DNA of 33,561 bases from an uncultured Candidatus Saccharibacteria bacterium (GTDB lineage Bacteria > Patescibacteriota > Minisyncoccia > UBA11713 > 2-01-FULL-45-33). Below, piece after piece: positions 15,374 through 33,188 of this stretch. The first letter of the stretch is position 1. Every line of letters starts with the position of its first letter. The translations under genes were made by a program, and so were the position numbers. The stretch spans positions 1-33,561 of the forward strand of contig CAYRCJ010000004.1 of the NCBI GenBank assembly GCA_964422785.1. The letters are read 5' to 3'. The notes below the pieces were generated by a model that saw only the letters and a list, made by a program, of their open reading frames with translations, ran no database searches and was not told the origin of the DNA.

Positions 15374-16367
15374 AGACAAAATAGAATTCAGAAAGGATCC
15401 GGTTTCAGGAGATTGGGTTTTGGTTTCTCCAAAGGCTAAAAAGAAACCTGTTTTTTTCAGACAAGACCGGTATGTGCCTCTTCCAAAATCCGCTTGTCCG
15501 TTTGAAGGGCGCAGGCTTTTGGAACAAGGCGAGCCCCTTTTGTGGCTTCCGAAACCAGGAAAAAACGACATAAAAGATTGGTGGGTCCAGATTTTTTCAA
15601 ATAGATATCCGGTTGTTAAAGCCTCAAGGATCTGCCCGCCGCTCGAAACCGACGGAATGTATGATTACAAAGAGGGCGTTGGATTTCAGGAGGTAGTTCT
15701 CACCAGAGATCATGCGCGTCCAATCGGGCTTATGGAAAAAAAGGAAATTGAATTGATAATTGAAGCCTATATGACCAGATTTCAGGCGCTTCAAAATGAA
15801 TCTTGCGTCGAATATGTTTTTATTTTTCACAATTCCGGCGCTTCCGCCGGAGCCACTGTTCCGCATCCTCACTCTCAAATTTTGGCGATGCCAATTATCC
15901 CGCCGGATGTCGCCAAGAGCCTTGCGTACTCACGGTCCTACCATACGAAACACAGTCGTTGTGTTCATTGCGATATCATAAAACTGGAATTAAAGAAGAA
16001 AATCAGGGTGATTTTTGAAAATGAATCTTTTGTAGCGGTGGCTCCCTACGCGTCACATGTGTCTTTTGAGATACGAATTTTTCCAAAAAAGCACGAGGCT
16101 CATTTCGAAGCCATTGACTCTAAGCAGCTCTCTGATTTTGCAGAGGCGATGGCGTTTGTTTTTTCGAGGCTCCACTCCAAAATTAAAAATCCTGACTATA
16201 ATTTTTTTATCCACACGGCGCCGCCCAAAGGGAAGGACTTCAGGCACTATCATTGGCATATGGAGATTTTGCCTAGGATTTCTGTTTGGGGGGGCGTGGA
16301 ACTTGGGGTTGGAATTGATATAATTAAAATCTCCCCGGAGGAGGCAACAAAGATTTTAAGGAAATAG
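15366..16367 (+). CDS. galT: galactose-1-phosphate uridylyltransferase-like HIT-superfamily nucleotidyltransferase
   Basis: 333 aa, FRKDPVSGDWVLVSP N-terminus, CPFEG, catalytic HPHSQI block. Exact substrate is not inferable. Confidence 0.75.
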   Translation: MNKDKIEFRKDPVSGDWVLVSPKAKKKPVFFRQDRYVPLPKSACPFEGRRLLEQGEPLLWLPKPGKNDIKDWWVQIFSNRYPVVKASRICPPLETDGMYDYKEGVGFQEVVLTRDHARPIGLMEKKEIELIIEAYMTRFQALQNESCVEYVFIFHNSGASAGATVPHPHSQILAMPIIPPDVAKSLAYSRSYHTKHSRCVHCDIIKLELKKKIRVIFENESFVAVAPYASHVSFEIRIFPKKHEAHFEAIDSKQLSDFAEAMAFVFSRLHSKIKNPDYNFFIHTAPPKGKDFRHYHWHMEILPRISVWGGVELGVGIDIIKISPEEATKILRK

Positions 16368-30628: not shown

Positions 30629-31291
30629 ATGAGCGATGATTTGATGCTCGATGTTGGACAAGCAAACGAATTAAAACTTTCTTTCCGCCGGAATGGGTGG
30701 AAGACAAATGAGGAAATCAAGCGTTTGAGTGAAGGAAGTTTGCTCGCCGGCGTTTTGAGTGTCCTCAACGGCACCGCCAAGATCAAACCCATCACCGAAG
30801 ACGCCTCTCGCTGGATCACTCTCAACGAAACCACCATCGCTGTAAACCTCGCCGCCACTCCGAACCTTCCGTTCAACGAAGCAAAAATCGAAAAACATAT
30901 CGGCGAAGGTTGGGTAATTGTTGAAAAACGACCCGACGGACTCTACATCAGCGGCCGCAAAGTAATCATCCACCTCTCCAAACGCCAAAGGGGCGCAAAA
31001 TCACTGGGTGGCCATGAACTTCGCGATGAACTTACAGGAAAACCAGTCCTCAATTCCAACATCCTGGACGCTCTTTATGGGAATCCGCATTTGATTCCCG
31101 AAGACTGGAAGAAAGATGAAAATGGAAACACCATCTACATTTTCTTCTGGGGCACCCTCTACCGCGACTCGGACGTCAATCTCTACGTTCGTTGCTTATA
31201 CTTCTTCGGTGGCAGGTGGTACCGGCTCTACGGTTGGCTTGACTACGGTTGGAGTGGCAATAACCCTGCGGCTTTGCTCGCAAGTATTTAG
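30629..31291 (+). CDS. DGR variable (target) protein, 220 aa, VR at the extreme C-terminus
   Basis: AGGAG RBS 7 nt upstream. The last ~41 codons are the VR copy of the downstream TR. No signal peptide or TM segment visible. N-terminal ~175 aa unrecognised. Confidence 0.88.
   Translation: MSDDLMLDVGQANELKLSFRRNGWKTNEEIKRLSEGSLLAGVLSVLNGTAKIKPITEDASRWITLNETTIAVNLAATPNLPFNEAKIEKHIGEGWVIVEKRPDGLYISGRKVIIHLSKRQRGAKSLGGHELRDELTGKPVLNSNILDALYGNPHLIPEDWKKDENGNTIYIFFWGTLYRDSDVNLYVRCLYFFGGRWYRLYGWLDYGWSGNNPAALLASI
31160..31283 (+). repeat. DGR variable region (VR)
   Basis: 124 nt aligning without gaps to 31644-31767. There are 14 mismatches, all where TR has A. It ends 5 nt before the stop codon. Confidence 0.92.
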
Positions 31292-31297
31292 TTCTTC

Positions 31298-31340
31298 GGA
31301 CTAGGCCACTTTGACCTTTTTGAAACTTTGGCCTTAGTCC
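31298..31340 (+). other. hairpin 15 nt downstream of VR (candidate DGR target-recognition cruciform)
   Basis: GGACTAGGCC (31298-31307) pairs with GGCCTTAGTCC (31330-31340), 10 bp with a 1-nt bulge and a 22-nt loop. Confidence 0.45.
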
Positions 31341-31379
31341 TTTGATTCCGAATTTTGGGAAATATAAATTTGTTTCCAG

Positions 31380-31405
31380 CCCCGCATCTTGCGGGGCCTT
31401 TTTTT
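31380..31405 (+). terminator. rho-independent terminator of the target gene
   Basis: CCCCGCA / TCT / TGCGGGG, then CC and a T7 run. Confidence 0.8.
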
Positions 31406-31643
31406 GTGATAAAATAAAAAAGGCAGTAGGTGAATACGCGAGAGACTACGGTTTCTCGCTACCGAAACCAGTATCCATACATCGAGAGTATCTACGACTA
31501 AGGTTTTGGATAGAGTGGTGTATGCAGAAACTTCATCAAAAAATGAAAATACTTGGTGTAAGGCACTATCGCATTACGATGCGGAATTCTATACAATCCT
31601 GAGAGTATTCGAAGGATGGTGGCCCGGGAGGTGCTTTACACGC

Positions 31644-31767
31644 AAACCGCAACTCGGACGACAATCTCTACGTTCGTTACTTATACTTCAACGATGGCAG
31701 GTGGTACCGGAACTACAATTGGCTTGACAACGATTGGAATGGCAATAACCCTGCGGCTTTGCTCGCA
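31644..31767 (+). repeat. DGR template repeat (TR), non-coding
   Basis: Invariant master copy of VR. In the VR reading frame it is rich in AAC/AAT codons (N R N S D D N L Y V R Y L Y F N D G R W Y R N Y N W L D N D W N G N N P A A L L A). Confidence 0.92.
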
Positions 31768-31774
31768 ACTCTTT

Positions 31775-32080
31775 TCATTTCTCTCCCAGCTTTTTGTTGG
31801 GAGAGTTTTGTTTACCATGAATTTGTTGAAGATCTTTCGCAAGCTGCCCGCTCCATCCTCCGAGCATACGCCCGATCTCATCTATTTTTACCGAAAGTGC
31901 TATATATTTTTTGTTGTCTATTGATTTTGTTTCCCATAAAACCATGAGCAATATTTTTAGAGTATCCATTTTTCTTATTGCCAATCTCACCCAGGGATGT
32001 TTCTCTTCTCTAGATAAAAAACTTGCAATAGATACGGCTTCTATTGTTTCTACAAAAAGAACGTCAATCCGCTGACCCAA
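31775..32080 (-). CDS. avd: DGR accessory variability determinant (Avd-like four-helix-bundle protein), 5' end uncertain
   Basis: The C-terminal helix KIDEIGRMLGGWSGQL matches the EVGRILGSWI helix of Bordetella phage BPP-1 Avd. LPKIHRHSLGQRIDVLF aligns with IPRKHGVAREMF. The frame stays open upstream to 32206 and encodes a plausible helix 1 (LLQKIKSAYLVWYGYYQALPK). No ATG/GTG/TTG occurs there, and the listed start at 32080 is a TTG. Confidence 0.8.
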   Translation of the reverse strand: MGQRIDVLFVETIEAVSIASFLSREEKHPWVRLAIRKMDTLKILLMVLWETKSIDNKKYIALSVKIDEIGRMLGGWSGQLAKDLQQIHGKQNSPNKKLGEK

Positions 32081-32172
32081 AGAATGCCGATGTATTTTTG
32101 GCAGAGCCTGATAGTATCCATACCAAACAAGATATGCACTTTTTATTTTTTGAAGAAGAGGTAGAACAGTGC

Positions 32173-32182
32173 GGGGGGGGGG
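32173..32182. repeat. G10 homopolymer (C10 on the avd strand)
   Basis: Ten consecutive G in an AT-rich genome. The tract lies inside the open upstream extension of avd and 13 nt upstream of the RT ATG. Confidence 0.9.
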
Positions 32183-32195
32183 TATTATATGGAAT

Positions 32196-33188
32196 ATGGC
32201 TTTGATTCAATTCGCCCATACATATAAGGATATCATTTCCTTGGAAAATCTACTCGAGGCCTGGAAAGAATTTATAAATGGCAAAAGATCTCGCAAAGAT
32301 GTCCAAGAGTTTGAGAGAAATTTAATGAATAATATAATTTCGCTACATCTGGATCTTGCGACAAAAATCTACAAACACTCTTCGTACGAGGCTTTCAACA
32401 TCTCCGACCCGAAGCCGAGAAACATTCACAAAGCAAGGGTGAGAGATAGATTGTTGCATCACGCAATCTATAGAAAATTTTATCCTTTTTTTGAAAGAAC
32501 ATTCATTGCAGATTCCTATTCATGCCGATTAAGAAAGGGTACACATAAAGCAATCAACGTATTTCACTCGTTTATAGGCAAAGAATCAAAAAATCATACA
32601 AAGACCGTCTTTGTCCTAAAGTGCGATATAAAAAAGTTTTTTGCAAATATTGATCACGGCATACTTCTGGAAATAATCAGAAGTTGTATCCCGGACCGCG
32701 ATATTCAGCGGCTTATATCGGAAGTTGTGGAGAGCTTTCATTCAACAAGCGTCGGCGTTGGGCTTCCTTTGGGAAATCTTACTTCCCAGCTTTTGGTGAA
32801 TATTTATATGAACAGATTTGACCAATTCGTGAAGCATAAGCTCAAAGCAAAATACTATATTCGCTATGCGGATGACTTTGTTATATTGTCGCAAGATAAA
32901 AAATGGCTTGAAGATATATTGCTTCGCATAAAAGATTTTTTATTGACTAATCTAAAACTAGAGCTTCATCCCGATAAAGTTTCCATTAAAACAGCGGCGT
33001 CCGGTATTGATTTTTTGGGGTGGGTTCATTTTTCCGATCACCGAGTTTTACGAACAACAACCAAAAAGAGAATGTTTAAGCGACTCGAAACATATTCTAA
33101 AAAGCCGGAGATGGTCAATTCATATCGCGGATTATTACAGCATGGCAATGCCTATAAAATTCTACAATTGATTGATGAAACAGGTTAA
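32196..33188 (+). CDS. DGR reverse transcriptase
   Basis: 330 aa from the ATG at 32196 (the track GTG at 32169 adds 9 aa across the G-tract). RT motifs: PKPRNIHKARVRDRLLHHAI, SYSCRLRKGTHKA, LKCDIKKFFANIDH, GLPLGNLTSQLLVNIYMNRFD (DGR-type [I/L]GxxxSQ), YIRYADDFVIL (YxDD), LELHPDKVSI, GIDFLGW. Confidence 0.95.
   Translation: MALIQFAHTYKDIISLENLLEAWKEFINGKRSRKDVQEFERNLMNNIISLHLDLATKIYKHSSYEAFNISDPKPRNIHKARVRDRLLHHAIYRKFYPFFERTFIADSYSCRLRKGTHKAINVFHSFIGKESKNHTKTVFVLKCDIKKFFANIDHGILLEIIRSCIPDRDIQRLISEVVESFHSTSVGVGLPLGNLTSQLLVNIYMNRFDQFVKHKLKAKYYIRYADDFVILSQDKKWLEDILLRIKDFLLTNLKLELHPDKVSIKTAASGIDFLGWVHFSDHRVLRTTTKKRMFKRLETYSKKPEMVNSYRGLLQHGNAYKILQLIDETG

Follow-up and report, generated by a model that had tools for sequence, protein, structure and literature searches.

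A simple repeat in the 5′ region of avd as a candidate phase switch of Patescibacteria diversity-generating retroelements

The accessory gene avd of a diversity-generating retroelement (DGR) on contig CAYRCJ010000004.1, from an uncultured Candidatus Saccharibacteria bacterium, has an open frame for the Avd protein but no canonical start codon in front of its first helix, and a run of ten cytosines lies directly before that helix. Is such a gene damaged, wrongly assembled or started in an unusual way, or does the run itself decide whether Avd is made? The stretch of DNA analysed (33,561 nt, hereafter the window) carries a complete DGR within its last 3 kb, in the order variable repeat (VR), template repeat (TR), inverted avd and reverse transcriptase gene (RT). 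The original prediction, made from the letters of the window, had listed the inverted avd, the missing start and the homopolymer as linked oddities, and offered assembly error, non-canonical initiation or slipped-strand phase variation as explanations. Here, the missing start and the tract are treated as one phenomenon, for which comparison with related loci favours the last explanation: slipped-strand changes at the tract probably switch Avd, and hence mutagenic retrohoming, on and off.

The avd reading frame and its tract

As predicted, avd lies on the minus strand between TR and RT. Clean TR/VR similarity ends at 31768, 6 nt before the avd stop codon (31775–31777), with weaker similarity as far as 31774, and the gene takes up the 427 nt that separate TR from the RT ATG (32196). 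The first ATG, GTG or TTG in the avd frame is the TTG at 32078–32080, which gives a 101-aa open reading frame (ORF); the frame stays open upstream of it to 32206, reading IKAIFHIIPPPRTVLPLLQKIKSAYLVWYGYYQALPKIHRHS. Within this extension the letters confirm a C10 run on the avd strand (G10 on the plus strand) at 32173–32182, the only G/C run of at least 8 nt in the 33.5-kb window, the next being a G7 at 16288.

An ATG on the avd strand at 32219–32217 is the antisense of RT codon His8 (CAT), and from this ATG avd overlaps the divergent RT start region by 24 nt (32196–32219). The 5′ coding segment (32183–32219) consists of the ATG followed by GELNQSHIPYNT up to the tract, which starts 37 nt downstream of the A of the ATG and lies 13 nt upstream of the RT ATG. 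With ten cytosines the ATG frame meets a stop after 51 codons (ORF at 32064–32219), and the tract must lose 1 nt or gain 2 nt for this frame to be joined to Avd. C10 is thus out of frame, while C9 or C12 is in frame and gives an Avd of 147 or 148 aa; the 147-aa protein that had been derived by removing one base agrees with this arithmetic. As in a contingency gene, a tract between the start codon and the domain sets the frame, and removal of a single nucleotide restores it.

The claim that the open extension encodes the N-terminus of Avd was supported when the extended translation was compared with Avd profiles. The repaired 147-aa protein covers positions 1–102 of the 104 in NF033474 (NCBIfam Avd) with its residues 19–122, scoring 60.3 bits, below the cut-off of 80, and scores 42.9 bits with PF22296 (bAvd), above the cut-off of 40. 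In the TTG-started 101-aa version the match begins no earlier than position 31 of NF033474 or 37 of PF22296, and both scores are below the cut-offs. An AlphaFold single-sequence model of the 143-aa open frame (pLDDT 71.5) has helices at residues 12–33, 37–65, 71–92 and 98–133; helix 1 begins right after the tract-encoded PPP, and the TTG start falls within helix 2. These results point to an N-terminus upstream of the TTG, and the avd body from the tract edge to the stop codon (31775–32172) appears to correspond to the Avd four-helix domain by ORFs, profiles and model. The best PDB matches of the model by Foldseek are the Avd of BPP-1 (4DWL and 8UB8) and are weak (E 0.18–0.8, TM 0.34–0.43), and a phmmer search of PDB sequences with the repaired Avd gave no match. 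A sigma-70 scan, which is uninformative for this phylum, found no promoter-like site for avd on the minus strand.

Repeats at the avd site in related cassettes

A scan of one genome per species with the window RT gave 80 Patescibacteria loci, and a second scan of metagenome contigs added a further 80. These 160 closest RT relatives (L001–L160; RT identity 60–72%) all lie within the same TR/avd/RT cassettes, and 134 were evaluable after identical duplicates had been removed. A simple repeat was present at the tract site in 125 of the 134 (~93%). Read on the avd strand, it is poly-C of 7–14 nt in 112 loci (C7 in 4, C8 in 15, C9 in 34, C10 in 40, C11 in 13, C12 in 4 and C14 in 2), (CA)n in four, (GA)n in one, (CT)n in one, and in seven a tetranucleotide array of GCCA, AGCC, AACC, ACGA, CAGC or GTCA with up to 13 units. 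One further contig outside the 134 (L096) ends within a heptanucleotide array at the site. In the genome set, 61 poly-G/C runs of at least 8 nt fall in the 100-nt windows around the site (8.1 kb in total) against six in the other ~726 kb, an enrichment of about 1000-fold over flanking DNA, and one of the six off-site runs is itself the avd site of a locus with different spacing. Relatives that lacked the homopolymer and had an ordinary in-frame start would have counted against the prediction; the opposite was found.

The peptides encoded by the repeats differ among loci at the same place (PPP, THTH, NQPT, SQPA and ERER). Different units encoding different peptides at one site argue that selection acts on mutability and not on a peptide motif; what is conserved at the site is repetitiveness.

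The turnover of repeat types is most apparent in a sub-clade (L007, L009, L014, L020, L037, L084, L096 and L102) that shares the 5′ sequence ATGTTGAAATCTAATTTTGG and in which poly-C is replaced by AGCC, AACC, ACGA, GCCA, GTCA or CAGACAT arrays. Two close relatives of this sub-clade, L050 and L061, have no repeat. Varied units within the sub-clade and none in these two indicate that the type of repeat turns over fast at a fixed site. Other G/C runs in the flanks of relatives were dropped from consideration; an example is a second G10 in L080 (1576–1585), which lies in a partly palindromic, ORF-free stretch (1560–1590, CCCTCATGAGGGGGGGGGGAGGG) about 1.9 kb upstream of the RT start.

Whether the repeat lies inside translated avd was judged from the reading frames. 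The avd ATG opposite RT His8 is conserved in 104 of 123 relatives, and its frame is free of stops up to the repeat in all 104, whereas the two alternative frames are open in 16/104 and 10/104. The RT N-terminus, encoded on the other strand in part of the span, is a partial confounder of this test, but the contrast is still large. Nine of the 134 loci of the clade have no repeat. Seven of these read without interruption from the ATG into Avd, several of them through an interrupted tract such as CCCCTCCCCC, and the other two have short C5–C6 runs and are out of frame. Four outgroup loci (L161–L164, viral contigs from IMG/VR with RTs 46–50% identical) have the same divergent avd/RT layout and no simple repeat; all four have an in-frame avd ATG, which overlaps the estimated RT start by 4–21 nt. 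Taken together, 11 of the 13 repeat-free loci of clade and outgroup are in frame, where one in three would be expected by chance (p = 2e-4). Because repeat-free loci read from the ATG into Avd, the ancestral avd would have started at this ATG, with the repeat lying within the coding region. Non-canonical initiation, one of the three explanations first offered, is made less likely by these findings, since the ATG frame reaches the tract without a stop in 104/104 loci and repeat-free relatives mostly start at that ATG. Given its absence from L161–L164, the repeat seems to be a trait derived within the Patescibacteria clade.

Loci scored as repeat-free include L002, L050, L061, L085 and L133 (in frame) and L138 and L153 (out of frame, C5–C6). 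Most repeat-free loci hold short or interrupted C-rich remnants, e.g., CCCCTCCCCC or ACCCCACCAGCC, which look like tracts locked by substitutions.

Of the 125 repeats, 37 leave the Avd domain in frame with the ATG; 35 would have to gain one nucleotide (+1) and 45 to lose one (−1, the class of the window locus), and eight are ambiguous. This distribution is not distinguishable from uniform (chi-square p = 0.49). Every scorable out-of-frame locus (83 of 83) keeps an intact Avd frame beyond the repeat, with a median length of 121 aa and a minimum of 110, so these loci are not pseudogenes.

Tract length also differs between close relatives. L060/L129 and L130/L131 are 99.3% identical in nucleotide sequence over 1 kb, do not differ in the 155 nt of flank that were compared, and carry C9 and C10, respectively. 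L049 has (CA)10 and L125 (CA)7 at 94.8% identity, and L007 has (AGCC)8 and L020 (AGCC)6 at 91.6%. At 88% identity, L016 has an out-of-frame C9 (OFF) and L095 an in-frame C10 (ON), and the close relatives L031 and L051 have C9 and C14. Variation of tract length with conservation of the flanks, as found in contingency genes, is thus seen among related loci, as distinct from the lineage of the window itself; a metagenome scan with the tract-flank DNA pattern and free tract length found no near-identical copy of the window locus.

Contig ends show a modest excess near the tract, with seven in the 0–70 nt bin against 0–4 in each of the next eight 70-nt bins, a pattern that fits assembly breaks at variable or repeated sequence and is the only hint of frequent, reversible switching inside a population. 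The contigs of L045, L064, L072, L086, L089, L096, L099, L110, L120 and L160 stop at the repeat itself or a few tens of bases away. Contig ends are also frequent about 630–700 nt upstream of RT, where TR or VR would lie.

Phase variation and alternative explanations

The case for phase variation rests on the fixed 5′ coding site, the turnover of repeat units, the length differences between close relatives, the mixed frame states, the intact downstream gene and the locked, interrupted tracts. The G10/C10 tract would be a hypermutable contingency repeat within the first ~20 codons of avd, between the ATG and helix 1. Slipped-strand mispairing during replication would change its length and so bring the Avd domain into or out of frame with the ATG. 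The C10 allele of the window would be OFF, with a 51-aa product that lacks the Avd fold, and C9 or C12 alleles would give full Avd. RT, TR and the Avd body would be intact in either state, and the tract would randomly switch mutagenic retrohoming of the target gene (30629–31291) in a subpopulation. In the Bordetella phage DGR, Avd is needed together with RT for cDNA synthesis, and a similar dependence of the window RT on Avd is presumed. Switching within populations, its reversibility and rate, and its effect on DGR activity are likewise inferred.

The closest parallels are contingency loci, such as the poly-G tracts of Campylobacter jejuni and Neisseria and the tetranucleotide repeats of the lic and mod genes of Haemophilus influenzae. 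The clade of the window resembles them in having a 5′ coding repeat of similar units and lengths, mixed frame states among relatives, and interrupted tracts locked in one phase; the C7–C14 range, with a mode of 9–10, resembles the poly-G tracts of phase-variable Campylobacter and Neisseria genes. Unlike contingency loci on surface-structure or methyltransferase genes, the gene concerned is an accessory factor of a targeted hypermutation machine, and the relatives are uncultivated groundwater Patescibacteria, unlike the known hosts of such loci. Phasevarions, in which a Type III mod gene is phase-variable, are alike in that a repeat switch in the gene of one factor gates phenotypic variation across a population; in the DGR, however, the downstream variation would be sequence diversification of one target protein and not epigenetic control of a regulon.

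A literature search found no paper in which simple repeats, homopolymers or phase variation are linked to Avd or to DGRs, and no report of phase variation in Patescibacteria; an earlier mention in the literature on DGRs of the Candidate Phyla Radiation (CPR) is possible. The portions of the large DGR survey drawn on here (Wu et al. 2018, PMC5758913) mention no simple repeat or frameshift in avd, and their uses of 'frameshift' and 'slippage' concern TR/VR indels only. What is proposed as new is the combination, a repeat-driven phase switch on a DGR accessory gene, both kinds of element being known separately.

Little is known of how DGR activity is regulated. Some control is to be expected, since constant mutagenesis of a functional ligand-binding protein should carry a cost. 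We lean towards a heritable, reversible and stochastic avd switch across a large clade of Patescibacteria (CPR) DGRs, with diversification on in only a minority of cells. If this holds, most cells would keep the current variant of the target protein while a few explore new ones, and the avd repeat would be a simple and testable control mechanism for DGR activity; VR diversity in metagenomic time series should then follow the share of avd alleles that are in frame. Within the reach of the literature search, the repeat would also be the first contingency locus proposed in uncultivated Patescibacteria with reduced genomes. For annotation, gene callers will truncate or miss avd in about two-thirds of these cassettes, so that surveys will class them as degraded or as lacking Avd, and breaks in assemblies tend to fall at the tract.

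Several observations weigh against a switch at the DNA level, in addition to the partial confounding of the open-frame test by the RT overlap. Uniform frame states would also fit a repeat that is not translated, or rescue at the level of RNA or the ribosome. A GTG, TTG or ATG that could act as an alternative start lies at most six codons past the repeat in 42 of the 83 out-of-frame loci, compared with 12 of the 37 in-frame loci. Two near-identical groups (L075/L145 and L087/L090/L091) show no change in tract. The need for Avd is extrapolated from the Bordetella phage system, and the tract length in the window and the allele states are read from assemblies; those built from short reads are somewhat error-prone in the length of homopolymers.

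The main rival is recoding during expression, a possible but rather doubtful alternative in which slippage of RNA polymerase, or a ribosomal shift on CCC-C, yields some full-length Avd from every allele, the repeat setting a low, tunable dose of Avd instead of a heritable on/off state. It would account for frame states that are spread evenly (37/35/45) while the Avd body is intact in 83/83, as if the DNA frame were neutral, and most tracts have at least 9 nt; long homopolymers promote transcriptional slippage and CCC-C is prone to +1 shifts, effects that are compatible with variation at the DNA level. A programmed shift normally has one direction, however, and the loci that need +1 (35) and −1 (45) are about equally frequent, so that no fixed direction is found. 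Of the poly-C tracts, 19/112 have just 7–8 nt, and the tetra-, di- and heptanucleotide arrays at the site are classic substrates of DNA slippage and not known recoding signals. Bacterial RNA polymerase slippage is best documented on A/T runs, not on G/C, and length changes in the DNA are seen directly between near-identical loci.

Less likely is a repeat outside translated avd, in a shared 5′ untranslated or promoter region, where it would tune transcription or have no function, Avd being started at a downstream GTG or TTG or at a non-canonical codon. The uniform frame states and the frequent canonical start soon after the repeat fit such an arrangement, and from its position 13 nt before the RT ATG the tract could conceivably affect RT expression. 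On the other side stand the open ATG frame (104/104, against 10–15% for the other frames, with the RT overlap as a partial confounder) and the 11 of 13 repeat-free relatives and outgroups that run from the ATG straight into Avd. In addition, no ATG, GTG or TTG occurs within 12 codons past the tract in the window or in 29 of the 83 out-of-frame loci, and since helix 1 starts at the tract edge, a downstream start would truncate it.

That G10 is a homopolymer miscall, or an inactivating frameshift in a dying DGR, is very improbable: G/C homopolymers are error-prone in short-read data and contig ends are in modest excess near the tract (seven in the first bin against 0–4), but the repeat is conserved at a single site in 125/134 loci, which come from many studies and assemblers, some of it as tetranucleotide arrays, the Avd bodies of out-of-frame loci are intact (83/83), and in the window the RT is intact and TR/VR differences are confined to adenines. 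The assembly error first suggested is thus rejected for the existence of the tract, which belongs to a clade-wide repeat, and is possible for its exact length (10 as opposed to 9 or 11).

Cassette layout and transcripts

The DGR lies on a cellular chromosome, where the flanking genes include those for EF-Tu, SecY, PGK, ComEC and UDG. The target gene (30629–31291, plus strand) encodes a 220-aa protein with no Pfam match, and its 3′ end carries the VR (31161–31283). The TR (31646–31768, plus strand) is 88% identical to the VR; all 13 mismatches over the 123 nt are at TR adenines. The RT (32196–33188, plus strand, 330 aa), which lies near the TR and diverges from avd, is of the DGR type (PF00078, RVT_1, E = 7e-24). 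Its translation contains LGNLTSQ, which fits the DGR-type motif (I/L)GxxxSQ. Exact-protein look-ups with the RT, from both possible starts, and with the target protein returned no record, and an Rfam search of 31200–32400 gave nothing above threshold.

The inversion of avd, which had been considered an oddity, turned out to be the usual arrangement. According to Wu et al. (2018, Nucleic Acids Res 46:11, PMC5758913), who define it, architecture B3, TR-(avd)-RT, accounts for 90% of CPR DGRs, and the window, with avd on the reverse strand between TR and RT, shares with B3 elements the order of target/VR, TR, inverted avd and RT, the location on a Patescibacteria chromosome and the A-to-N pattern. 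Of the 80 loci from the genome scan, 76 extend far enough upstream, and in every one avd directly precedes RT on the other strand. The DGR of BPP-1 (avd-TR-brt; Avd pentamer 4DWL, RT-Avd-RNA complex 8UB7/8UB8) has the same set of components, with an Avd that is probably of the same family by HMM (above the cut-off of PF22296, below that of NF033474), and the window model has four helices, its best PDB matches, weak as they are, being to BPP-1 Avd. The window differs from BPP-1 in the orientation of avd, which runs opposite to RT and away from it, the two starts overlapping, in the linker encoded by the repeat before helix 1, and in the terminator-like hairpin directly after the TR.

This hairpin (CTCTCCCAGC / GTTGGGAGAG, then TTTTGTTT; 31781–31805, plus strand) begins 13 nt past the TR, so the TR RNA may be a short, separate transcript. 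Equivalents, whose stems are perfect but vary in sequence, occur in 91 of 129 relatives, against 1.8 of 129 in shuffles. The concern that a TR-RT co-transcript would be antisense to avd is therefore probably moot. On the other strand the hairpin overlaps codons of the conserved C-terminal tail of Avd (KQNSPNKKLGEK). A second terminator-like hairpin with a T-run lies 3′ of the target gene (31379–31397, plus strand), with an 8-bp stem of which seven pairs are GC, followed by CTTTTTTTGT.

In most relatives avd and RT share 21–24 nt of their start regions in a head-to-head overlap, which means that the promoter of each gene must sit inside the other. An RT start at GTG 32169, reading through the tract (MRGGGIIWN...), was judged an artefact of ORF calling, as homologues align from the ATG at 32196; in 88 of 110 loci the RT frame can be followed back across the tract without a stop, the level expected by chance for about five non-GGG codons. 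ORF callers will nevertheless extend RT across the tract by way of this GTG.

A role of the G10 as Shine-Dalgarno sequence of RT was considered and is unlikely, since most genes of the window have no such motif and relatives carry repeats that are neither G-runs nor Shine-Dalgarno-like. The 30 nt before 33 start codons of the window are mostly A/T-rich leaders such as TAAAAT, without a Shine-Dalgarno motif; the few exceptions include the leader of the DGR target gene (AGAAGGAG).

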